In this document: positions 5,017-47,250 of the stretch, piece by piece
Numbering within the stretch: the stretch's first letter is position 1
How the letters are laid out: every line of letters begins with the position of its first letter
Assembly: GCA_964497095.1 (NCBI GenBank)
Contig: CAZCCL010000001.1
Span: 348-64,347 of the forward strand
Reading direction: 5' to 3'
From: an uncultured Gaiellales bacterium
GTDB taxonomy: Bacteria; Actinomycetota; Thermoleophilia; RBG-16-64-13
Length of the DNA stretch: 64,000 nt
Notes under the pieces: generated by a model
Seen by the model: the letters and a program-made list of their open reading frames with translations, nothing else
What the model was told of the DNA's origin: nothing
The model's database searches: none
Position numbers and translations under genes: made by a program

Positions 5017-5813
5017 AGCTGGCCCGCGTGGAGTATGGAGGTGAGGTCTACGAGACCGCCGTCACCTGCGACGGATACATGGTCGAGGCGACGAGCGCCG
5101 GTCCCGGGGGCGCAGTCCCCGCCGGCACGGTGATCTCCGAGGCCGAGGCCCGTCTGTTGCCGCCGGCGGTCCCGGGAAAGATCCTGGGGGTGGGCTGGAA
5201 CTTCCGCGAGCACATCAAGGAGATGATCACCCGGCTCAGGGGGACGCCGACCCCCGAGCGCAAGGACGACCACGTGCCCCGTCCGCTGCTGTTCCTCAAG
5301 CCGCCCTCCAGCCTCATCGGGCACGGGGAGGCCATCATCTACCCCAAGGACGCTACGCGCGTGGAATACGAAGGTGAGCTGGCGGTGGTGATCGCCCGGG
5401 AGACGCGGAGGGTGACGCCCGAAGAGGCGCGACTGTGCGTGCTCGGCTGGACCTGCGCGAACGACGTGACGGAGCGCGATCTACAGCAGGAGGACAAGCA
5501 GTGGTGGCGGGCCAAGGGCTTCGACACCTTCGCCGTGGCCGGGCCCTATCTGGAGACCGAGGCTCCCCGACCCGAAGCCTGGCTGCGCACCCGGGTGAAC
5601 GGGGAGCTCCGCCAGGAAGCTCAGATGCTGGACATGATCCGCGACCCTTTCGAGATCATCTCCCTCGTCAGTCAGGCCATGACCCTCGAGCGGGGCGACA
5701 TGATCATGCTGGGGACCCCTTCGGGTGTGGGCGAACTGCACCCCGGGGACGAGGTGGAGGTCGAGATCGACGGGGTGGGCTACCTGCGCAATCCGGTCGA
5801 GTCGGAGCGGTAG
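5013..5813 (+). CDS. Fumarylacetoacetate hydrolase (FAH) family protein
   Basis: …FLKPPSSLIGHGEAIIYP…YEGELAVVIA…GWTCANDVTERDLQ…KGFDTFAVAGPYL… is an FAH/HpcE-like fold. ATG overlaps the cimA stop (ATGA). Confidence 0.8.
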   Translation: MKLARVEYGGEVYETAVTCDGYMVEATSAGPGGAVPAGTVISEAEARLLPPAVPGKILGVGWNFREHIKEMITRLRGTPTPERKDDHVPRPLLFLKPPSSLIGHGEAIIYPKDATRVEYEGELAVVIARETRRVTPEEARLCVLGWTCANDVTERDLQQEDKQWWRAKGFDTFAVAGPYLETEAPRPEAWLRTRVNGELRQEAQMLDMIRDPFEIISLVSQAMTLERGDMIMLGTPSGVGELHPGDEVEVEIDGVGYLRNPVESER

Positions 5814-6571
5814 TGAGCGGCCCGCCTTCCCGGGACGAGGCGTCGGACTTCTCTCGGGCGGGGCTCTCACCGGCTGGGAAGGAAGTCCTGGACCGTGTGG
5901 CCGGCGGGGCCTCGGCGGCTGAGGTGGCCGAGGCGCTGGCCCTCAGGCCTCATCGCGAGGGCGGGTTCTTCCGGGAGACCTACCGATCGCCGCTCACGCT
6001 CCCTACCAGTCTCGGCGAGCGCTGCCTCGCGACCTCGATCCTATACCTCCTGACCTGCGAGAGTCCCAGTCGTTTCCATCGGCTGCGTTCGGACGAGATC
6101 TGGTTCTACCACGCGGGCTGCCCTGTGGAACTGGCTTTGCTGCCGGTGGACCGCGGCCGGCAGCCGGAGGTGGTGCCGCGCCCAACGGGGCTGCAGTCAG
6201 CGTTGCGCCCAATGGGGCCGCAGGGAGCGTCGCGCCCAACGTGGCCGCCACGGCCGCCCGGTGGGCAAGAAGGCCGGCTGCGACTCCATCTCCTGGGCCC
6301 GGAGCGGCCCCAGGTGTTTGTTCCCGGCGGCTGGTGGTTGGGTGCGCGGGTGGCGCCCGGAGGACCGAGCGGTGAGGGAGCGGGTGGGCTGGGCGACGGA
6401 ATCGGCGACGGGGCGGGCGAAGACGAGAGGGCCGGAGCGGGACGGGACTGGACCCTGGTCGGCTGCGTGGTCACACCCGGTTTCGAGTACGAGGACTTCG
6501 AACCGGCGGAGCCCGCGTCCCTACTGCGGGAGTTCCCGGAAGCGGCGGACATCATCAGGGCTCTGACCTGA
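5813..6571 (+). CDS. Cupin-fold protein (DUF985/cupin_5 family) with internal 9-aa tandem repeat insertion
   Basis: …RPHREGGFFRETYRSP…ATSILYLLT…SRFHRLRSDEIWFYHAGCPVEL…DWTLVGCVVTPGFEYEDFE matches DUF985 cupins. GTG overlaps the FAH stop (TAGTG). The upstream part of ORF 5435..6571 is a shadow frame. Confidence 0.6.
   Translation: MSGPPSRDEASDFSRAGLSPAGKEVLDRVAGGASAAEVAEALALRPHREGGFFRETYRSPLTLPTSLGERCLATSILYLLTCESPSRFHRLRSDEIWFYHAGCPVELALLPVDRGRQPEVVPRPTGLQSALRPMGPQGASRPTWPPRPPGGQEGRLRLHLLGPERPQVFVPGGWWLGARVAPGGPSGEGAGGLGDGIGDGAGEDERAGAGRDWTLVGCVVTPGFEYEDFEPAEPASLLREFPEAADIIRALT
6178..6258 (+). repeat. Three tandem imperfect 27-bp repeats (GCGCCCAAYGKGGCYGC…) inside the cupin gene, encoding APNGAAVSV / APNGAAGSV / APNVAATAA
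   Basis: Direct reading of sequence 6178-6258; the repeats are in frame. Confidence 0.7.
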
Positions 6572-9700: not shown

Positions 9701-10478
9701 CGCCGAGTCCGACTCTCCGGCAGGCGCCCGCGTCGGGACGAACGGCTCGCCGGGGAACGGGTCTCGGGGCAATGGACGGCCGCCGGTGGAGATACCCCCC
9801 GATGACTTCAGCCGGGAAGAGCTTCTGGCATTGGAGAAGGAGACGTTGGGACTGTATGTGAGCTCGCACCCCCTGAAGGATCTCCGGCAGCACATCAAGA
9901 GAGAGGCAGGCCATTTGATCTCCCAACTAGGGGAACTGCCGGACGGCACGGTCACTACCATCGTGGGCATGGTGACGGCGGTGAAGCGGATCACCACGAA
10001 GAAATCGGGCGAGCTCATGGCCTTTGTCACCGTCGAGGGTATGGAAGGCTCCGTCGAGATCATCTGTTTCCCGGCGATCTACCAGGAGAACAAGGAGATC
10101 CTGATACAGGACAAGGTGGTGAAGATCAAGGGCCGGGTGGATCACAAGGACGAGGCCGAGACCAAGTTCATCCCCATGGCCATCGAAACGTTCTCGCCCC
10201 GGACGGGACTGGAGCCTCTGGCTCTTTCCGTCGATGGCGACAGCTTCCCCAGCACGGTCATAGAGGACCTCAAGCGTATCCTGGCCCGCTTCCCCGGGCA
10301 GTGTTCCGTCGACATGTACGTGCAGGTGGGGGCGGATGCGCGCCGCCTGCGTTTCGGGAACGGCTACCGGGTCGACCCCCAAGCCAGTCTTTTCGCGGAA
10401 CTGAAGGAATTGCTGGGGGAAAGCTGTGTGCTGCACGGGTCGGGATCGTCGACCCTCGGCAACGGTTCCGCGAGGTAG
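6759..10478 (+). CDS. dnaE: DNA polymerase III alpha subunit (PHP + polymerase + OB domains)
   Basis: FCHLHVHTHYSALDGA… PHP N-terminus with a long polymerase core. TTG start with AAGGAG RBS. The first about 55 aa are a low-complexity Ala/Gly/Pro extension, so the true start could be later. Confidence 0.9.
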   Translation: MSSVLPPVAGETIGGSPIPTAEETAGGAAAAPVDAAAGGSAAGTSPGPAGETDPARPAAGFCHLHVHTHYSALDGACKVEDLVARAAELGMPALAITDHGVLSGAIKFYEECLKAGVKPIIGLETYVVDDRLRKEGMNEERWHLTLLARDDTGYRNLLKLGSLAFLEGYYYKPRLDYQVLREHAEGLICLTGCASGRLSRALQNGQTAAAEAEVQRLVGIFGEGNVYLEMQETGIRELAEVNPRMGELAERTGLKLVATNDVHYLREGDADAHDVLLCIQTGSRLSEENRLRFNSQEFYFKSPEEMRAVFSDHPEAVSNTLEVADRCNVHIALDEMLIPRFPVPEGYDESSYLREQCERGLVRRYGDAVTSEIRERLESELEVVEKMGFPPYFLIVWDFVTFAKEAGIPVGPGRGSAAGSLVSYLLGITDLDPIAYDLLFERFLNPDRISMPDIDIDFSVNGRERVIEYVADKYGRDRVAQIATFGTIKARQAIRDAARVMDVPYGQADRIAKLVPEVLNITLDQCLRDPKCELRAAYDGDELVREVVDMARPLEGLIRQDSIHAAGVVISMGPLTDHLPLMQKGDAEVVTQVSMGDVERLGLLKMDFLGLRNLDVIDSAVGIIRDGGHPEFDIESIPLDDARTYQMLAKGDSEGVFQFESSGMREALREIQPTRLDDLIALVALYRPGPMEFIHDYARNKRDPESIRYEDERLQSILSPTYGVAIYQEQLMEISKRIGGFSPAEADDLRKAIGKKIRAKMDRLEPKFRAGAAASGTSPRVIDHLWSLMEKAGDYSFNKSHAACYALISYRTAYLKAKFPVQYMAALISSVMDTKDKVPFYVTVANEMGIEVLPPDINESVLDFRGVEGRIRFGLNAVKNVGETAIRVILDARRSGGPFLDLFDFCERVDLGVVNGRAIESLIKSGAMDSVGPSRRGMLLVMQQAMAHGKKVRADADRGQGSIFDLMPEPEAPAADSRGAAAESDSPAGARVGTNGSPGNGSRGNGRPPVEIPPDDFSREELLALEKETLGLYVSSHPLKDLRQHIKREAGHLISQLGELPDGTVTTIVGMVTAVKRITTKKSGELMAFVTVEGMEGSVEIICFPAIYQENKEILIQDKVVKIKGRVDHKDEAETKFIPMAIETFSPRTGLEPLALSVDGDSFPSTVIEDLKRILARFPGQCSVDMYVQVGADARRLRFGNGYRVDPQASLFAELKELLGESCVLHGSGSSTLGNGSAR

Positions 10479-13225: not shown

Positions 13226-14332
13226 TTAGGGTGTTTCCTCCTCGCGGAGGATGCGCAGGCCTTCCGTCCTGAGGCTGATACGGATCGGGGCCCCTTTGCT
13301 CAGGTCGAGTTGCTGATAGAAGTAGTTCGCGCCCCGCGCCTCCAACTCGTGGCCGTTCGTGAGAGACAACCGGATGACCCGCATCTCCCGCTGGTTCTCA
13401 ACACCGAGCACGGTGGCGTCCAGTTGATTGAAGGCCAGTCCGCCGAGCGCCGGCCGGTCGGGGTAGAGGATCTTGACGTCCTCCGGAGCGATGTAGACGG
13501 GGACTATCTCGCCCGGAGAGCTGGGCTGGGCAGGCGCGTACAGCTTGAGGCCGTCCCACACGAGGGTCACGTGGTCGGCGGTCGCGGCGGAGACCCGGGC
13601 GTGGAAGATGTTGCGGATGGCAAGCACTTCAGCCGCCCGCATGCTGGAGGGCCGACGGAACACGTCACCCACCGCTCCGACCTGCTGTAGCTCCCCGTCC
13701 CGCAAGACCGCGAGTCGGTCACCGAGCGCGAAGGCGTCCTCCACGTTGTGAGTGACGCAGATCACTATGAGGCTTCTCTCCACCTGGAGCGCCCTCAGAT
13801 CGGTCCTGAGCCTCTCCCGAAGCCCCGGGTCGAGTGCGGAGAAGGGCTCGTCGAGCAGCAGGACTTCGGGGTCCCTGGCCAGGGCTCGGGCGATGGCTAC
13901 TCGTTGCTGCTGCCCCCCGGAAAGCTGGTGCGGGAGACGGTCGACCAGCGGACCCAGGCCCATCTGGTCGACCAGAGTCAGGGCCCGCTCGCGGCTGTTC
14001 GAATCGCGACCCAGCGGATAGCGCACGTTCTGAAGGACGGTCAGGTGGGGGAAGAGCGCGTAGCTCTGGAAGACGTACCCGATGCCGCGTTTGCGCGCGG
14101 GCAGATTCACATGCTCTCCGGCCGTTCCTCGCCGGAACAAGACCTGGCCGTCCAGGACTATCTCTCCCTCGTCGGGTGACACCAGGCCGGCTATCGACTC
14201 CAAGGTCATGGTCTTGCCGGATCCGGACGGACCGAAGAGGACCAGGACCTCCTCTTCCACCTGAAGACTCAGATCCAAAGTGAAAGAGGGCAGCCGTCTG
14301 TGGATATCCACGGTAAGTTGACGTTCTTTCAT
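13226..14332 (-). CDS. ABC transporter ATP-binding protein, ModC/WtpC-like with C-terminal TOBE/MOP domain
   Basis: Walker A GPSGSGKT, signature [15 protein letters not shown], Walker [12 protein letters not shown], then a roughly 110-aa TOBE-like tail. ATG at 14332 with AGGAG RBS. The upstream part of the called ORF is rejected. Confidence 0.75.
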
Positions 14333-19021: not shown

Positions 19022-20197
19022 ATGAGCCTTACCCGGACACCGGAAGCGCATACACGGCGGGCCGTGAAGTGGGTTATCCCGTCCCTCCTCGCCTTGATGG
19101 CGCTCGTCTTCTTGCCGGCATCGCCCTGGCTCTCTCCTGCACAGGGCTCTACGCTCACGCAGAAACAGGCCGAGCTCAGAGAGGCCAGTGCCCAGCTCAG
19201 CAAGTTGCAGGACTCCCTGGACGAGCTGGCTGTGAACTACAACAATGCCGAGGTCCGGCTCGCCGCTCTCGACGACGCCATCGCGGAGATCGAGAACGAC
19301 ATCGCCCGCTCGGAGAAAGACTACGGGATCGCGCAGGCCCAGCTGGCGAAGCGTCTGGTAGACCTCTACAAGAACGGAGGCTCGGCCACTCCGGGATATC
19401 TGGAGGTCCTTTTCTCGGACAGCGATATGGGCTCCATCCTCCAGCGGTTCTCTCTGCTCAGCAAAGTGGCGGACGACGACCAGGAGCTCTTCGACGAGAT
19501 CAAGGCCCACATCCAGAAGTCTGAAGAGCGTCAGGCGACCCTCGCAGAGAAGAAGCAGGCTCAGGCCGCCCAGGTGAAGGAACTGCAGGCGCTTCAGGCC
19601 GAGATGAACGACAAGATGAAAGCCTCGGCCAAGGAGTATAGACGGCTCAAGAATCAGGTGGCGGCGCTCAAAGAGGCGGAGCGCAAGGCGGCCGAAGCTG
19701 CGGCCAGGGCCAAGGCGGCAGCTGCCGCGGCCGCCGCGGCCAAGAAGAGGAGCAGCAGCGGCGGAGGCAGCAGCGGCGGGACGGTGCAGTCCGGTTCTTT
19801 CGTGTTCCCAGTGGACGGGCCGCATAGCTTCACGGACACGTGGGGCGCGCCTCGTTCAGGCGGCCGCACGCACAAGGGTACCGACATCATGGCGCCGCAC
19901 GGGACCCCGGTGGTGGCCTGTGTGAGCGGGACCATCCTCCGCACCAATCCCACCAACAGCGGATTGGGGGGGATCACCATCTGGCTGCGGGGCAAGAACG
20001 GCTCCAGCTACTACTACGCGCACCTGGACGGCATCGCTTCCGGCATCCACGGGGGAGTCTCGGTGGGGGCCGGACAGACGATCGGGTGGGTCGGCTGTAC
20101 GGGGAACGCCAACGGCTGCTATCACCTGCACTTCGAGATACACCCCGGAGGCGGGGCGGCCGTCAACCCGTACGCGACCTTGCGGGCGGCCGACTAA
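19022..20197 (+). CDS. M23 family metallo-endopeptidase (murein hydrolase activator type) with N-terminal signal/anchor and long coiled-coil
   Basis: Hydrophobic N-terminus, about 200 aa of coiled coil, C-terminal LytM/M23 domain (HKGTDIMAPHGTPVVA…YAHL…GCTGNANGCYHLHFEIH). Confidence 0.8.
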   Translation: MSLTRTPEAHTRRAVKWVIPSLLALMALVFLPASPWLSPAQGSTLTQKQAELREASAQLSKLQDSLDELAVNYNNAEVRLAALDDAIAEIENDIARSEKDYGIAQAQLAKRLVDLYKNGGSATPGYLEVLFSDSDMGSILQRFSLLSKVADDDQELFDEIKAHIQKSEERQATLAEKKQAQAAQVKELQALQAEMNDKMKASAKEYRRLKNQVAALKEAERKAAEAAARAKAAAAAAAAAKKRSSSGGGSSGGTVQSGSFVFPVDGPHSFTDTWGAPRSGGRTHKGTDIMAPHGTPVVACVSGTILRTNPTNSGLGGITIWLRGKNGSSYYYAHLDGIASGIHGGVSVGAGQTIGWVGCTGNANGCYHLHFEIHPGGGAAVNPYATLRAAD

Positions 20198-39813: not shown

Positions 39814-41259
39814 GTGCACATCACCTTCATCGAACCCGCCGCTCCCGGCTTCCACGTATACAGCTTTGTGAAGCAGCTGCGACTGGGTCTGCCGCTCCTG
39901 GGTGCCATGATGGCCCAGCGCGGGCATCAGGTGCGCGTATATGCGGAGAGTCTCTCCGAGATCGATTGGGACGACGTGCTCTCCTCCGACCTGGTGGGCA
40001 TCTCCTCCACTACCTCCACAGCCGTGCGCGCCTATCGCTACGCGCGCCGGGTACGGGATGCGGGCGTGCCCGTGGTCATGGGCGGACCCCATGTGACCTT
40101 CTTGGCCGACGAGGCCATGGACTTCTGCGACTACGTGGTCCGTAACGAAGGGGAGGAGACCCTTGTAGAGTTGGTCGACTACCTTCACGGCCGCGGTTCG
40201 CTGGAAACGATTTTGGGTCTCACCTACCGTGACGGCCAGGGCCAGGTCGTGCACAACCCGTCGCGTCCTCTTCTCACTTCGCTCACCGACCTCCCCTGGC
40301 CGGACATGAGTCTGGTGGTCGGTGGCGAGCAGGTGAAGCCCACGCCGATCCTGGCGTCACGGGGTTGCCCGTTCGGATGCGAATTCTGCTCGGTGGTCCT
40401 CATGTTCGGCCGCCGGGTGCGTACCGTCGAGCCGGTCGAGGTCGTGAAGCAGATAAAGAGGATAAAACCGAAGAAGCTCTTCTTTTACGACGACAACTTC
40501 TTCATCAGCAAGCGGCGGGGCAAAGAGCTGCTGACAGAGATGATCCGGCAAAAAGCGCAAGTGGAGTTCTTCGCCCAGATCAGGGCCGATTCCGTCTGCA
40601 AAGACGGGAAGGTCGACCGGGAGCTGCTGGACCTGCTGTGGAACGCGGGCTGCACCATCGTCTACTTGGGGCTGGAGTCCGTCAACCCGGCTACCCTCAA
40701 GGAGTACCACAAGGAATCGAGCATAGACGATATGGCCGGAGGGCTGGAGGCCCTGGCGCAGAGAGGCATCAAGACCCACGGCATGTTCGTGTTCGGCGCC
40801 GACTCCGACACCCCGGAATCGCTGCAGAAGACCGCAGATTTCGCCACTCAGCACGGACTGAACAGCATACAGTTCCTGGCTCTGACTCCCCTGCCCGGTA
40901 CCAGGCAGACGGCCCAGTTCGAAGCCGAGGGGCGTATCTTCACCAAGAATTGGAGTCTCTACGATGGGCACCACGTGGTGTTCTGGCCCAAGCAGATGAC
41001 CCCCTTCGAGCTGCAAGAGATAATCCTTCAGGCTCACAAGCGCTTCTACAAAGGGCGCCGGGTGTTTGCGGTCAGACACAGAGCCCCCATGTTCCACAAG
41101 CACCAGCTTCAGGGATACCTGCTCAGCCGGGCCTGGGAGCACGTGCGCGAGAACCGCGAGTTCTTGCGCGAACTGAAGGACTTCTCCGAGTCGCACACGC
41201 CACCCGTAGCGGTGGGTCGGGGTTTCCTCAAATCTGGGTTGGAGACGGTCACGCGATAG
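39814..41259 (+). CDS. B12-binding-domain radical SAM protein (class B rSAM)
   Basis: N-terminal cobalamin-binding-like domain, then CPFGCEFCS radical-SAM cluster motif (CxxxCxxC variant). About 480 aa. Confidence 0.7.
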   Translation: MHITFIEPAAPGFHVYSFVKQLRLGLPLLGAMMAQRGHQVRVYAESLSEIDWDDVLSSDLVGISSTTSTAVRAYRYARRVRDAGVPVVMGGPHVTFLADEAMDFCDYVVRNEGEETLVELVDYLHGRGSLETILGLTYRDGQGQVVHNPSRPLLTSLTDLPWPDMSLVVGGEQVKPTPILASRGCPFGCEFCSVVLMFGRRVRTVEPVEVVKQIKRIKPKKLFFYDDNFFISKRRGKELLTEMIRQKAQVEFFAQIRADSVCKDGKVDRELLDLLWNAGCTIVYLGLESVNPATLKEYHKESSIDDMAGGLEALAQRGIKTHGMFVFGADSDTPESLQKTADFATQHGLNSIQFLALTPLPGTRQTAQFEAEGRIFTKNWSLYDGHHVVFWPKQMTPFELQEIILQAHKRFYKGRRVFAVRHRAPMFHKHQLQGYLLSRAWEHVRENREFLRELKDFSESHTPPVAVGRGFLKSGLETVTR

Positions 41260-41421
41260 CGGTTCGTTCGCGTTCGGAGCGGAATGAGTGCTTGGAAATG
41301 AAGCGACCTCTGCTGCCCGCCGCCGATGGCAGGCTCCAGCAGAGAGGATTCCGGGGCTTTCTTTCGAAAAGGTAATCATTCTAGACCTAGGCAATCCCCA
41401 TTCGACCAAAGGGAGCGTTGT

Positions 41422-42180
41422 TTGGCCAAAGTATTGGCCTTCGCGAACCAGAAGGGCGGCGTGGCGAAGACCACGACCACTCTCAATCTGGGCGTAGCGT
41501 TCCAAGAGTTGGGTCACCGGGTGCTCACGGTGGACATGGATCCCCAGGGCAATCTCACCATGAGCTTGGGGCTGAATCCCAACGACGCGCGGCCCAGCAT
41601 GTTCGACGTCCTCGTGAACGGGGTGAGCATAGAGGACGTTCTCGTTCAGCGGGAACTGGATGTAGCGGTGGCGAGCATCGATCTGGCCGCGGCGGAGATC
41701 TCGCTGAGCTCGTTGATCGGCAGGGAGAGGATGCTGAGCAAGGCGCTGCTCGAGGTGCGCGACCGCTATGATTTCATTCTGATCGACACGCCTCCCTCTT
41801 TGGGCCTGCTGACGGTGAACGCGCTCACTGCTGCCGACGGGGTGATCGTCCCCGTGCAGTGCGAATACCTCTCGCTACGGGGTCTGGCTCAATTGGAGCG
41901 GACTCTCGAGCTGGTACGAGACAATCTCAATCCCAAGGTCCATATTGCCGGGATCGTGGCCACTATGTACGATTCTCGTACGATTCATGGACGGGAGGCC
42001 GTCGAGGTGCTCAGGAACAGCTTCGGCGACCTCGTGTTCGAGACGACGATCATGAAGACCATCAGGTTTGCGGAGGCGCCGGTCAAAGGGGAATCGGTGC
42101 TCAAGTACGCTCCAGGAAGCAAGGCCGCTCAGGCGTATCGGCAGCTCGCGAGAGAGGTGCTCAATGGAAAAGAGATCTAG
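41422..42180 (+). CDS. ParA/MinD-family P-loop ATPase (orphan ParA-like)
   Basis: MAKVLAFANQKGGVAKTTTTLNLG… deviant Walker A. 252 aa. TTG start with GGGAG RBS. No parB nearby. Confidence 0.8.
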   Translation: MAKVLAFANQKGGVAKTTTTLNLGVAFQELGHRVLTVDMDPQGNLTMSLGLNPNDARPSMFDVLVNGVSIEDVLVQRELDVAVASIDLAAAEISLSSLIGRERMLSKALLEVRDRYDFILIDTPPSLGLLTVNALTAADGVIVPVQCEYLSLRGLAQLERTLELVRDNLNPKVHIAGIVATMYDSRTIHGREAVEVLRNSFGDLVFETTIMKTIRFAEAPVKGESVLKYAPGSKAAQAYRQLAREVLNGKEI

Positions 42181-42181
42181 C

Positions 42182-43519
42182 ATGAAAGACAGCGGCCTCA
42201 GCTCTCTGTTCAGGGCGACGGAGGCGGGTAAGCCCGGCGAGGAGCAGGCCTCCGTCGCCGCCGAAGGCGAGGCCGATCTCACGGCTCAGGCCGCGACGCA
42301 GGCAGAGGATGGACCCGAGGCCGAGAGCGCAGTCTCCGAGGACGTGGAAAGCCCTTGGGACATGCCGTCCCACCCCAGCACCGGCCGTCGGACCCTGATT
42401 CAGCCTTCACGGAGCTTTCCTGCCGTCATCCGGGTCGTCGGGGTGGGGGGCGCGGGAACGAACGCCATCAACCGCATGCTCGAGGCCGGGCTGGAAGGGG
42501 TGGAGTTCATCGCCATCAACACGGACGCCCAGGCGCTCAACATGTGCGAGGCCGACCACAAGCTGCGCATCGGTCGGGAGCTGACCAAGGGCTTAGGAGG
42601 CGGCTCCGACCCGAGGGTAGGACGGGAGGCGGCCGCCGCTGCCTACGACGAGATCAAAGGCGTGCTCAAGGGCAGCGATATGGTGTTCATCACGGCCGGT
42701 GAAGGGGGCGGCACCGGTACCGGTGCCGCGCCGGTGGTGGCCGAGATAGCCAAGTCCTTGGGCGCGCTCACCATCGGGGTGGTGTCGCGGCCGTTCATCT
42801 TCGAGGGCAAGCGCCGTGGCCTGCAGGCTCTCGAGGGCGTCCGGGTCCTACGGCAGAAGGCCGACACGGTCATCGTCGTCCCCAACGACAAGCTTCTCGA
42901 GGTCGCCGACAGAGGCACCTCGATGGTGGCGGCGTTGCGGCTGGCGGATGACGTGCTCCGTCAGGGCGTGCAGGGGATCTGCGACCTGGTCACCGTTCCG
43001 GGGCTCATCAATCTCGACCTGGCCGACGTGCGCACCATCATGACCGGCGCGGGCACGGCCCACATGGGGATCGGCCGCGCGCGAGGCGAGCAACGTTCTC
43101 AGAAGGCGGCGGAGATGGCCATCAACTCCTCTTTGCTGGAGAGCTCGATCGAGGGTGCCCGGGGGATCCTGCTCAACGTCAGCGGGGGGCAGGATCTGTC
43201 GCTTCACGAGGTCAACGAGGTGGCGGAGATCGTCAATGCCGCTGCCGATCCGGAGGCCAACATCATCTTCGGCGCTGTCGTGGACGAAGCTTTGGGCGAT
43301 ACTCTATGGGTGACGGTGGTCGCCGCCGGGTTCGATGCGACAAGCGAAGAGATCTTGACCGAGCAGGTGGTCAGCGCCACGAGACATGATCATCCCCAGG
43401 CGGTGGGCACCCCTCAGCGAGTCGCTCCCGAGTTTGTCCCCACTGAGGAGGTCCGTGCGGAGCCCGACGGGATCGCGGGCCCCGAGGACGAGCTGGAGGT
43501 CCCGCCGTTCCTAAGGTAG
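42182..43519 (+). CDS. ftsZ: Cell division GTPase FtsZ with about 90-aa acidic N-terminal extension
   Basis: GGGTGTG tubulin signature, T7 loop, C-terminal conserved peptide DELEVPPFLR. ATG 2 nt after the parA-like stop. Confidence 0.9.
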   Translation: MKDSGLSSLFRATEAGKPGEEQASVAAEGEADLTAQAATQAEDGPEAESAVSEDVESPWDMPSHPSTGRRTLIQPSRSFPAVIRVVGVGGAGTNAINRMLEAGLEGVEFIAINTDAQALNMCEADHKLRIGRELTKGLGGGSDPRVGREAAAAAYDEIKGVLKGSDMVFITAGEGGGTGTGAAPVVAEIAKSLGALTIGVVSRPFIFEGKRRGLQALEGVRVLRQKADTVIVVPNDKLLEVADRGTSMVAALRLADDVLRQGVQGICDLVTVPGLINLDLADVRTIMTGAGTAHMGIGRARGEQRSQKAAEMAINSSLLESSIEGARGILLNVSGGQDLSLHEVNEVAEIVNAAADPEANIIFGAVVDEALGDTLWVTVVAAGFDATSEEILTEQVVSATRHDHPQAVGTPQRVAPEFVPTEEVRAEPDGIAGPEDELEVPPFLR

Positions 43520-43540
43520 GCCGCCGGCCTGGCCGGGTCC

Positions 43541-43990
43541 TCAGTCGATTAGGGCGCGCTCGAAGTAGAGGCAGGTCTTTTCTGCCAGACCCAGACTGCG
43601 GTAGAAGGCGTGAGCCTCGAGGTTCCAGGCCTCGGCCAGGAGGAACACCCGGCTGCATCCCCGGGCCTGGGCAAGAGACTCCGCAGCGTCGACGAGACCC
43701 CGGCCCACGTGCTCGCGGCGACGGATCTCCGTGACCACGACGTCCTGCAATTCGCATACCAGTGAACTCGACCACGTGCTGTAGGAGAATATGAGGACGC
43801 ACATGCCTATCAGGCGGCCGTCGGCCTCGGCCACCAGTAGGGAATGGCCGGACGAGGAGAGTATGGTCTCGATGATCGTCTCGAGGCGGTCCTTCGAGGG
43901 AGGTGATACCCCGTGGTGCTGCATGATCTCGGCGAGGAGAGGAAGCAGTTGCGAGATGTCCGCACGCGAGGCTGGGCGGTAGTCGATCAT
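43541..43990 (-). CDS. GNAT family N-acetyltransferase
   Basis: 149 aa with GNAT motif A (…VVVTEIRRREHVGRGLV…) and C-terminal …AHAFYRSLGL…. Confidence 0.75.
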   Translation of the reverse strand: MIDYRPASRADISQLLPLLAEIMQHHGVSPPSKDRLETIIETILSSSGHSLLVAEADGRLIGMCVLIFSYSTWSSSLVCELQDVVVTEIRRREHVGRGLVDAAESLAQARGCSRVFLLAEAWNLEAHAFYRSLGLAEKTCLYFERALID

Positions 43991-45820: not shown

Positions 45821-45993
45821 CCCTACGGTCCCTCTCCCCCCACGCTCACTGTGTCTCGGCCGAGTCAGCATATAGAATCAGCAACGTAGCCGCCAGGGGC
45901 GCGCCGGGGTACCGCAGGCCCGCGAGTTGAGAGGACGCTCTTGACCGGGCCGACCGAGTGTCGAAAAGGGCGCAGAGGAGACGAGAAGAACAC

Positions 45994-47250
45994 ATGGACC
46001 ACGTGGACCGGCAAGCGGGACTCGAGGTCTGGGCGCTCGAGCCCTACTTCGGAGGCTCTCACAAGTACTTCTTGGAGGGGCTGTCGAGGCAGTCCGCCCA
46101 TCGTTTCAAGCTGTTCACCCTCCCTGGCCGGCACTGGAAGTGGCGGATGCACGGAGGGGCTCTATCGTTGGCTCAAAGGGTGAGTGAAGAGGGTCGCTTG
46201 GGATCTGCACCCGACTCGGCCGCCCCAGGACCCGATGTGCTGTTCGTGTCCGATATGCTCGATCTAGCCGTCTTCTTAGCGGCGGTCGAGCCGGGGATCG
46301 CCGGCGCCCCGGCGATCGCCTACTTCCACGAGAACCAGCTCACGTATCCCCTGCCCCCGGGCGTCGAGCGAGACCTGAGTTACGGCTTCAAGAACTTGAC
46401 CACAGCAGTAGCGGCCCGCACCGTCCTCTTCAACAGCGAATACCATCGCCGGGAATTCCTGGAGGCCTGCTCGGCTCTGCTGAAGGCGATGCCGGACAAG
46501 ATCCCCCACTCGTATCTGGAGGAGATCGAGGCGAAATCAAGGGTTCTGCCGATCGGCTGCGACCTGCGCCGGTTCGACCGCCATCGGCCGACGGGGAGAT
46601 CGCAGGCGGCGAACGGTCGCTGGGGCGATCCCCAAGCCGGACCCCTCATCGTGTGGAACCAGCGCTGGGAATACGACAAGGCCCCGGGGGCTCTCTTCGC
46701 GGCCCTGTACGAGCTGAAGGCTCGGGGGGTACGGTTCCGCCTGGCGATGGCGGGGCCCAACCAAGGCACACCGACGGCGGAGTTCCTGCGCGCCAGGCGA
46801 GAGTTGAAGGACGAGATCGTGCAGTGGGGGAGGGTCACACGAGCCACCGATTATGCGTGTCTTCTATGGTCTTCCGACGTAGTGGTCTCCACGGCCGTCC
46901 ACGAGTTCTTCGGCATAGCGGTGGTCGAAGCTCTCTACTGCGGGTGCCGGCCGGTCCTGCCTCGCCGGCTCAGCTACCCGGAGATCATCCCACCCGAGGT
47001 GCATGAAGATGTCTTGTACGGGGAAGGTGAGCTGGTAGGAGCCCTCGCCGGAGCGTTGGCTCGGCCGCGCGGCTGGTCGGAGGACTGGCAGAGGACGTGG
47101 GTGAGCCGCTTCGATTGGGCGAGCCTTCGGACTCGCTACGATGAAGAGATCCGGCGGTGTTGGGAGAACGAGGCACGCACCCGGAGCCCGCGGCGCCGGG
47201 TCGGTGACCAAGTGGGAGGGAGAGACGGTGGCGGAGAGACTATCGCTTGA
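45994..47250 (+). CDS. Glycosyltransferase family 4 with N-terminal DUF3524 domain (tRNA-queuosine mannosyltransferase-like architecture)
   Basis: …VWALEPYFGGSHKYF… DUF3524 start and C-terminal GT1 fold (…EFFGIAVVEALYCGCRPVLP…). Confidence 0.6.
   Translation: MDHVDRQAGLEVWALEPYFGGSHKYFLEGLSRQSAHRFKLFTLPGRHWKWRMHGGALSLAQRVSEEGRLGSAPDSAAPGPDVLFVSDMLDLAVFLAAVEPGIAGAPAIAYFHENQLTYPLPPGVERDLSYGFKNLTTAVAARTVLFNSEYHRREFLEACSALLKAMPDKIPHSYLEEIEAKSRVLPIGCDLRRFDRHRPTGRSQAANGRWGDPQAGPLIVWNQRWEYDKAPGALFAALYELKARGVRFRLAMAGPNQGTPTAEFLRARRELKDEIVQWGRVTRATDYACLLWSSDVVVSTAVHEFFGIAVVEALYCGCRPVLPRRLSYPEIIPPEVHEDVLYGEGELVGALAGALARPRGWSEDWQRTWVSRFDWASLRTRYDEEIRRCWENEARTRSPRRRVGDQVGGRDGGGETIA

Follow-up and report, generated by a model that had tools for sequence, protein, structure and literature searches.

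In a 64,000-nucleotide (nt) stretch of DNA from an uncultured Gaiellales bacterium (GenBank assembly GCA_964497095.1, contig CAZCCL010000001.1, positions 348 to 64,347 of the forward strand; the whole stretch is called the window below), the gene for a ParA/Soj-type ATPase overlaps the start of ftsZ, and the encoded FtsZ begins with a conserved peptide of about 20 residues, followed by an acidic linker. The pair recurs in related genomes, and the comparisons presented here support a lineage-specific ParA–FtsZ module that would span the class Thermoleophilia. The reading we prefer, held with about equal belief and doubt, is that FtsZ would be both the activating partner and the cargo of a dedicated, nucleoid-bound Soj-like ParA. 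The parts of the module are, in window coordinates:

41408–41415, plus strand: Shine-Dalgarno-like sequence AAAGGGAG, 6 nt 5' of the ParA start codon TTG (read from the sequence).
41422 (TTG)–42180 (TAG), plus strand: gene for the ParA/Soj-type deviant-Walker-A ATPase of 252 amino acids (aa), identified from Pfam, PDB matches and individual residues.
42151–42157, plus strand: Shine-Dalgarno-like AGAGAGG within the ParA 3' end, 6 nt 5' of the ftsZ ATG at 42164 (read from the sequence).
42164–42180, plus strand: 17 nt common to the ParA stop region and the beginning of ftsZ, a predicted site of translational coupling (read from the sequence; an overlap is present in 61 of 61 pairs).
42164–43519, plus strand: ftsZ, 451 aa from ATG 42164 (445 aa from ATG 42182), identified from TIGR00065 and an identical public protein, P0001.
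42164–42226, plus strand: conserved N-terminal peptide, residues 1–21, MEKRSSMKDSGLSSLFRATEA (once per locus; conserved by codon position).
42227–42373, plus strand: acidic, non-conserved linker, residues 22–70, with 13 Asp/Glu against 1 Lys/Arg and an aromatic motif, ESPWD, near its end.
42374–42427, plus strand: conserved basic pre-core segment, residues 71–88, ..GRRTLIQPSRSFPAV (conservation among 42 homologues).
42428–43336, plus strand: globular GTPase and C-terminal domains of FtsZ, with GGGTGTG (Pfam Tubulin at residues 83–242 and FtsZ_C at 291–385, 445-aa numbering).
43487–43516, plus strand: canonical C-terminal peptide DELEVPPFLR (L444, P447 and F449 invariant among homologues).

One genome per GTDB species was surveyed with the window FtsZ as query, and the best 80 of 540 FtsZ-encoding stretches were analysed; genomes were read over the 64-kb window and the retrieved loci (flanks, 10 kb). 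A ParA gene lies directly 5' of ftsZ in 65 of these 80 species-level loci, and its product is 65–92% identical to the window ParA. Two other loci are cut by a contig end inside the FtsZ extension, and 13 have no ParA. The same arrangement is found on three further long contigs, namely L001, L087 and a 3.25-Mb metagenome contig of the same clade, whose FtsZ has the same N-terminal peptide. Sixty-one pairs could be parsed end to end, and the residue and overlap counts given below refer to these; in every one of them the end of the ParA gene runs 8–35 nt into ftsZ. The carriers have record titles naming Gaiellales, Gaiellaceae, Gaiella, Thermoleophilia, Thermoleophilaceae, 'Actinobacteria bacterium RBG_16_64_13' and many uncultured Actinomycetes bins, and a second protein search found the long FtsZ N-terminus also in proteins labelled Solirubrobacteraceae and Thermoleophilaceae by NCBI. 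The original prediction, made from the letters of the window alone, had suggested that the pair forms a lineage-specific system and named synteny in relatives as one of its checks; the synteny, kept across the class, supports a lineage-specific module. Outside the two genes the loci differ. In the clade of the window the pair is flanked by a response regulator, a histidine kinase and a radical SAM gene on the 5' side and by a GNAT, an aminotransferase, an AP endonuclease and a QTMAN-like gene on the 3' side, while the flanks in Gaiellales and Solirubrobacterales are unrelated (for example Fpg, gamma-glutamyltranspeptidase and a GGDEF-EAL protein). The two-gene unit alone is conserved across groups, and its flanks change.

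The 13 loci without ParA comprise two low-GC (guanine plus cytosine) Firmicute contigs, one from Anaerolineaceae and ten from other Actinomycetota (for the most part Acidimicrobiia). Each of these ten encodes an FtsZ with a short N-terminus (M..QNYLAVIKVVGIGGGG), and together they show the dcw order murG-murC-murB-(ftsQ)-ftsZ-pgeF-ylmE-sepF-divIVA, whereas none of the genes murG, murC, murB, ftsQ, pgeF, ylmE, sepF and divIVA occurs within 10 kb in any ParA-linked locus. The placement of ftsZ outside a dcw cluster, already suggested for the window, thus extends to its relatives, and so in Thermoleophilia ftsZ appears to have left the dcw cluster, joined a ParA gene in a coupled pair and acquired its N-terminal extension. 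One of the two low-GC contigs, labelled Solirubrobacterales MAG92 (L065, JBLNDT010000089.1), was considered as a carrier group member without ParA and set aside: it has 32% GC and an FtsZ like that of the Clostridium locus L071, and is almost certainly a misbinned Firmicute contig.

The FtsZ of the window scores 407.3 bits against the TIGR00065 equivalog (cut-off 295.2) and matches Pfam Tubulin (PF00091, 2.8e-45) and FtsZ_C (PF12327, 1.8e-33). In an alignment with 42 homologues, used for the statements on the pre-core and C-terminal segments, L444, P447 and F449 of the C-terminal peptide are invariant. By these scores and motifs the gene is a bona fide ftsZ, the canonical protein with GGGTGTG and DELEVPPFLR that had been recognised at the outset. 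Its start needs a correction. The two genes had been described as separated, with ParA ending 2 nt before the ftsZ ATG; an ATG does lie at 42182, 1 nt past the ParA stop, but it has a weaker Shine-Dalgarno sequence than ATG 42164, from which the genes overlap by 17 nt. The protein from 42164 begins MEKRSSMKDSG..., the identical public protein P0001 (451 aa) is called from the same codon, and a first ATG or GTG equivalent to it is found in 61/61 parsed relatives, making 42164 the better-supported start. In some NCBI-derived FtsZ entries of the clade, the annotated start coincides with the GTPase core or immediately precedes it, as in MPPSRSFPAVIRV.... In L087 the N-terminal peptide is encoded in frame, and the corresponding entry P0098 was called short because of one in-frame stop in the FtsZ linker (5740–6060) of an error-rich long-read assembly, in which neighbouring genes (AIRS, aminotransferase IV and QTMAN) are often split in two as well. 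Short-N-terminus entries can therefore be artefacts that miss the peptide in at least some cases, to judge from L087. A 751-aa protein, P0237, carrying ParA and FtsZ Pfam domains was examined as a possible ParA-FtsZ fusion and rejected; its junction is out of frame, so that it is a frameshift artefact and no Rosetta-stone fusion. A scan of 41150–43700 found no promoter or terminator consensus sites.

The extension of the window FtsZ comprises 88 residues before the IRVVGVGG strand, with 16 Asp/Glu against 8 Lys/Arg. The original prediction of an acidic extension of roughly 90 residues was right as to its length and its acidic character, but the acidic part is the variable one; as judged from conservation, the informative feature is the basic and hydrophobic N-terminal peptide of about 20 residues. 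The peptide reads MEKRSSMKDSGLSSLFRATEA in the clade of the window, MARRRASMREGPLAELFRATEAAQRQ in Gaiellales and MASGKRASMREGPLAALFRKTEE in Thermoleophilaceae and Solirubrobacteraceae, with the consensus (K/R)RxSM(R/K)(D/E)(G/S)(P/G)LxxLF(R/K)xT(E/D), of which R, S, L, L, F and T are invariant in 61 sequences. It is found exactly once per locus, at the start of FtsZ, in 65 of the 80 genome loci and in L001, L087 and L088. In the 57 loci used for a frame-openness test, the FtsZ frame is free of stops from start to core in every case, while the other two frames are open in 29 and 0. Where the peptide-coding sequence does not overlap ParA, entropy is about 0–0.6 bits at the first and second codon positions and 0.9–1.8 bits at the third, a pattern indicating a translated peptide under clear purifying selection at the protein level. 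The 3' end of ParA overlaps the RxSM part in Gaiellales, but RxSM is still kept where the overlap is only 8–14 nt, so that its conservation is more than a by-product of the ParA C-terminus.

The linker is of a different nature. Across relatives, 52 to 172 residues separate the FtsZ start from the GTPase core, and the linker is always net acidic, about 60% Pro/Ala/Asp/Glu, and not alignable between groups. Short clade-specific motifs do occur in it, such as TVEHVPxWE (L051, L024 and others), ESxWD (ESPWD in the window, 42340–42360), PTPIEEIPPREVPHPSL and RIPTPQERLRNAFSSEIPE (P0187, P0181, P0211), often with an aromatic residue amid acidic ones. In the pre-core segment R75, R76, L78, I79, S82 and P86 show no or hardly any variation. 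An AlphaFold2 model of the full-length FtsZ, built with the 42 homologues, is poor (mean predicted local distance difference test score, pLDDT, of 52); its values below 50 for residues 1–83, and of 32–40 for the linker, are compatible with disorder but uninformative in a model that is poor overall.

The ATPase was predicted as a 252-aa ParA-like protein starting at TTG 41422 and carrying the deviant Walker A motif KGGVAKTTT, and this gene model stands: the TTG start and a GGGAG/GGAG Shine-Dalgarno sequence 6–7 nt 5' of it are kept in 8/8 of the closest relatives. A longer open reading frame (ORF) from ATG 41326 was ruled out, as in-frame stops lie just 5' in 7/8 of them. The protein matches Pfam AAA_31 (2.8e-59) and CbiA (6e-26). 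At a threshold of E <= 1e-5, its best PDB matches are five Soj-type ParA sequences at about 185–198 bits, from M. smegmatis (4PFS/5IF9), M. xanthus (8RAY) and Thermus (Soj); lower scores are obtained for H. pylori Soj (136–139 bits), MinD (at most 70), McdA (57) and FleN (48), and no MipZ structure is among the matches at that threshold. The Pfam MipZ family matches partially, at 48 bits over profile positions 2–150 of 262, below the far stronger AAA_31. The protein reaches no NCBIfam equivalog cut-off, scoring 118 against 180 bits for ParA_partition (NF041546) and 65 against 212.9 for bacterial MinD (TIGR01968). In Bacillus Soj numbering, K11, G12, K16, T17, D38, D40 and D125 are invariant in the 61 orthologues, a set that covers the signature lysine, the P-loop lysine, both Motif-2 aspartates and the Walker B aspartate. 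The equivalent of Soj R189 is Arg in 61/61 and that of R218 is Arg in 57 and Lys in 4; these two are the arginines reported to be needed for non-specific DNA binding by Soj (Hester & Lutkenhaus 2007). The C-terminus of the window protein (...AREVLNGKEI) contains no MinD-type membrane helix. With its catalytic and DNA-binding residues intact and without such a helix, the FtsZ-linked ParA looks like an active, dimerising and nucleoid-binding ATPase. The motif KGGVAKTT (window 41452–41478), with Ala where almost all ParA and MinD proteins have Gly, is present in 61/61 FtsZ-linked ParAs and also in the mycobacterial Rv3213c-type orphan ParA (PDB entry 4PFS; Tsukamurella L084).

Activators of ParA/MinD ATPases, namely ParB, MinE, ParG, PomX and probably McdB and TlpT, act through a short peptide that is positively charged and located at the N-terminus or close to it, and in PomX, which is a filament-forming protein, the peptide is followed by an Ala/Pro-rich unstructured region (PMC7993993). 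The FtsZ described here has the architecture by which such activator peptides are defined, a short N-terminal peptide with conserved basic residues and then a variable acidic Pro/Ala/Glu linker. In the ParB motif of M. xanthus, the determinants are the hydrophobic residues L11, L15, L18 and I19 and the central R13, at whose position about half of ParBs have a lysine (PMC12462528). The ParA pocket for this peptide is located at the dimer edge and is made up of V116, L150, L152, L155, L187 and L192, with an adjacent site of Y81, E82, D110 and E117 (PMC12462528). The FtsZ peptide likewise offers four large hydrophobic residues, Met or Ile in 60/61 sequences and then Leu, Leu and Phe in 61/61 each, and its L-x-x-L-hydrophobic spacing is that of ParB L15/L18/I19. 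Four Lys/Arg are present in residues 1–21 of the window FtsZ; across relatives an Arg at offset -7 is invariant, and Arg or Lys is found at -3 in 60/61 and at +6 in 61/61. Genuine ParB N-termini for comparison are SGLGRGLEALLP (Thermus) and KGLGRGINVFFP (Bacillus).

The hydrophobic pocket is retained on the ParA side. When the M. xanthus numbering is mapped through the 8RAY sequence (10 of 10 residue identities agree with PMC12462528), the equivalents of V116, L150, L152, L155, L187 and L192 are hydrophobic in 61/61 orthologues, and in the adjacent site Y81 corresponds to Phe or Tyr, E82 to Asp or Glu and D110 to Asp. Nine of the ten positions thus keep their kind in 61/61, and the tenth, E117, is Ala or Ser throughout. 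The pocket is better kept in the FtsZ-linked ParAs than in Thermus Soj or in two mycobacterial-type orphans; in the latter L187 is replaced by Lys or Asp, and L192 by Thr in the Rv3213c type. The likeness to ParABS systems extends from the ATPase, which is of the Soj type by score and has intact catalytic, DNA-binding and hydrophobic pocket residues, to the gene order, in which the gene of the putative partner lies 3' of the ATPase gene and overlaps it as in soj-spo0J, and to the putative partner itself, which begins with a short peptide containing one key basic residue and four hydrophobic ones. The partner here, however, would be FtsZ and not a CTP-dependent parS-binding clamp; it has neither a ParB domain nor a ParB box.

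From these comparisons the following mechanism can be proposed. ParA-ATP dimers would bind the nucleoid non-specifically. The N-terminal peptide of FtsZ, with its basic residue and four large hydrophobics, would be presented on an acidic, presumably disordered tether of 30–150 residues, and would dock in the hydrophobic cleft of the ParA dimer interface as the ParB peptide does, stimulating ATP hydrolysis. A filament or ring of FtsZ would display many such peptides and so form a multivalent cargo, comparable to a ParB-parS complex, a PomXY cluster or a carboxysome. This cargo would deplete ParA locally and be steered by the resulting gradient, placing the Z ring relative to the nucleoid without adaptors. 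The contact between ParA and the peptide, the activation of the ATPase, nucleoid binding and the positive direction of regulation are what we infer, and the role of the pair in Z-ring positioning is likewise put forward conditionally. Tentatively, and with somewhat more doubt than belief, we suggest that FtsZ gained a ParB-like peptide that docks on and activates ParA, that the Z ring is the cargo of a ParA gradient, and that this makes up a two-protein, adaptor-free positioning system. Our claim is that the peptide would work like the ParB motif, not that it is derived from it; as to origin, ftsZ may have taken the place of the parB body 3' of a parA gene.

Several observations weigh against this proposal. 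The equivalent of E117 (in 'AAAEISLSS' of the window protein) is Ala or Ser in 61/61 ParAs, while E117 is reported to be invariant in ParA homologues and to be part of the site reading the ParB arginine (PMC12462528). The register of the peptide differs from LGRGLxxLI, the basic residue abutting the first hydrophobic instead of lying between the first and the second; speculatively, the uniform change of E117 to Ala or Ser may go with this altered register. A search for homology to ParB N-termini with a profile of 15 peptides found no PDB sequence at E <= 10, but it has no power, as the Thermus Spo0J peptide finds only itself. The conserved motifs in the linker suggest further binding partners. 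Finally, the co-occurrence of ParA and peptide is effectively one evolutionary event that was then maintained, not 65 independent ones, because all carriers form one clade.

The same contact could also act with the opposite sign, nucleoid-bound ParA-ATP capturing the FtsZ peptide and blocking or sequestering FtsZ over DNA in the manner of MipZ or of nucleoid occlusion, which would leave rings to form just where there is little ParA. The conservation of pair, overlap, peptide and pocket applies equally to such a negative regulator, Min-type and MipZ-type systems of the ParA/MinD family do inhibit FtsZ, and the Pfam MipZ match, although it covers only 150 of 262 profile positions at 48 bits, points the same way. 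We consider inhibition unlikely all the same: Soj-type structures score about 185–198 bits where MipZ gives no PDB match at E <= 1e-5, the MipZ gradient needs ParB, for which the pair has no linked counterpart, and an activator peptide tethered to every subunit suits a cargo better than the target of a stoichiometric inhibitor. A different view, to which we give still less credence, is that the peptide has a job independent of ParA, at the membrane, with a partner of the SepF or ZapA type or in polymer geometry, the ParA being merely co-expressed, for reasons of stoichiometry or timing, and perhaps serving chromosome segregation with a canonical ParB encoded elsewhere. The N-terminal peptide of Anabaena FtsZ alters polymer shape and SepF binding without a ParA, a true ParB could make use of the retained ParA pocket just as well, and the other conserved linker motifs fit this view too. 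The predicted peptide helix is moderately amphipathic (hydrophobic moment 0.41–0.47), but its mean hydrophobicity is low (0.1) and it contains invariant acidic residues, unlike the membrane helices of MinD and FtsA. The gene overlap is moreover kept over deeply diverged groups although every flanking gene changes, and FtsZ still has its canonical C-terminal peptide, to which anchor proteins bind.

Very unlikely, in our estimate, is a reading in which the ParA-linked gene encodes a second, specialised paralogue of FtsZ for a side function, such as the positioning of some other structure, or for an alternative mode of division, a canonical dcw ftsZ being located elsewhere. A reading limited to the window and the retrieved loci leaves room for such a gene, and other phyla do have paralogues of FtsZ with additional domains. 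Yet the ParA-linked FtsZ lies more than 100 bits above the equivalog cut-off and keeps its C-terminal peptide, its core similarity to the query (65–66%) is near that of the dcw-located FtsZ of Acidimicrobiia (58–68%), and no assembly occurs twice among the best 80 of 540 stretches, though dcw-type FtsZs of other classes ranked there.

Compared with known systems, the proposed role of FtsZ as partner and cargo of ParA resembles, in direction, that of PomXYZ in Myxococcus xanthus, where an ATPase of the ParA/MinD family, bound to the nucleoid, acts as a positive regulator of Z-ring position. PomX is an activator with a positively charged N-terminal peptide of 22 residues and an Ala/Pro-rich unstructured region, and it forms filaments whose peptides act independently, a layout like that of the FtsZ described here. 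No PomX/PomY-like adaptor is linked to the pair, however, so that the activating peptide would be on FtsZ itself, and the PomX peptide has been modelled at the MinE-type site, not the ParB-type site. MipZ of Caulobacter, too, is a ParA-like orphan ATPase with non-specific DNA binding and a direct action on FtsZ, but it is an inhibitor patterned by ParB and has the motif KGGAGKS. No N-terminal docking peptide is known from Caulobacter FtsZ. The MinCDE system shares an ATPase of the ParA/MinD family and an activator with a short N-terminal peptide; the differences are the low MinD equivalog score, the absent C-terminal membrane helix and the absence of minC and minE from the window. In heterocyst-forming cyanobacteria, FtsZ has a conserved extension at its N-terminus that is specific to the clade and without which the division plane is not placed normally, but this extension has no ParA partner and acts on polymer curvature and SepF binding. 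The dcw-type actinobacterial FtsZs examined are without the N-terminal peptide.

Outside the clade, the closest ATPases are orphan ParAs of the PldP/Rv1708 type and of the Rv3213c type (PDB entry 4PFS), with 46–51% identity; the nearest annotated relatives are 50% (xerD-parA-scpAB, i.e. PldP/Rv1708, type) and 49% (Rv3213c type) identical. A tree of the ATPase had been named as a check on the original prediction. In a small neighbour-joining tree with few references, the FtsZ-linked ParAs group tightly in a clade by themselves (mutual identity of at least 67%, against 42–51% to all references), and their scores set them apart from MinD and MipZ; the sister group is not resolved in this tree, and at 46–51% identity an assignment to the PldP or the Rv3213c type was not possible. 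PldP shares a link to division, its deletion giving a moderate division phenotype, but differs in its separate clade in the tree and in gene order, which is steA-pyrG-xerD-parA-scpAB in Tsukamurella (L083) against rSAM-parA-ftsZ here. Several 'plasmid' records of PLSDB are chromosomes or pieces of them, for example those of Nonomuraea (11.85 Mb), Neisseria (2.17 Mb) and Tsukamurella L083 (NZ_LR134450.1); no ParB was found at the end of the Nonomuraea record.

The surroundings of the pair in the window were analysed by Pfam scans of 50 predicted ORFs over the 64 kb. On the 5' side of parA lie a response regulator, a histidine kinase and a B12-radical SAM gene, and on the 3' side of ftsZ a GNAT gene on the minus strand, the two immediate neighbours having been named correctly from the outset. 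The statement that no parB, min, ftsA or ftsQ gene is nearby holds as well, as no dcw, min, parB, sepF or divIVA gene was detected by Pfam among the 50 ORFs. The ParB box (GERRxRA) was found in no frame of the window and in none of the 81 loci examined for it, and no second deviant-Walker-A ATPase was found in any frame of the window. The remaining content includes FeoB, LeuA, DnaE, the his operon, an M23 peptidase, the two-component system, PGI, DinB and MetRS. The M23 peptidase (19022–20197, plus strand, 22 kb 5' of ftsZ) has a PcsB-like coiled coil (PF01551 and PF24568) and may act at the septum as a peptidoglycan hydrolase like EnvC or PcsB. A protein with a QTMAN_N domain (the N-terminal domain of tRNA-queuosine alpha-mannosyltransferase) and a GT1 domain is encoded at 45958–47250 on the plus strand; a QTMAN-like gene is kept a few genes 3' of the module in the clade of the window, also at 13748–14950 in L001 and at 9791–11096 in L087. 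The cumulative GC skew across the window is monotonic. On three complete or nearly complete chromosomes the module is located at 45–57% of the record length, i.e. at 1.31 of 2.89 Mb in L051 (OY970337.1), 1.43 of 2.64 Mb in L052 (OY970312.1) and 2.0 of 3.56 Mb in L001, which would be near the terminus provided that these records start at dnaA.

How actinobacteria, lacking Min and Noc, choose their division site is called a long-standing open question in PMC3989709. The searchable full-text literature yielded no description of a ParA-ftsZ operon or of the FtsZ N-terminal peptide. Gaiellales and Solirubrobacterales, to which carriers belong, are commonly described as abundant in soil, and next to nothing is known about their cell biology. 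For annotation, short FtsZ calls in the clade can miss the N-terminal peptide. All known ParA/MinD-based regulators of the Z ring work, to our knowledge, through adaptors (MinC/MinE, ParB or PomX/PomY). If the proposal is true, an FtsZ bearing its own ATPase-interaction peptide would be the simplest such positioning machine, and the 'cargo' logic of ParA would be graftable onto a cytoskeletal polymer. The comparisons suggest a conserved variant of ParA/MinD-based control of the division site across Thermoleophilia, with a specific and testable molecular hypothesis.

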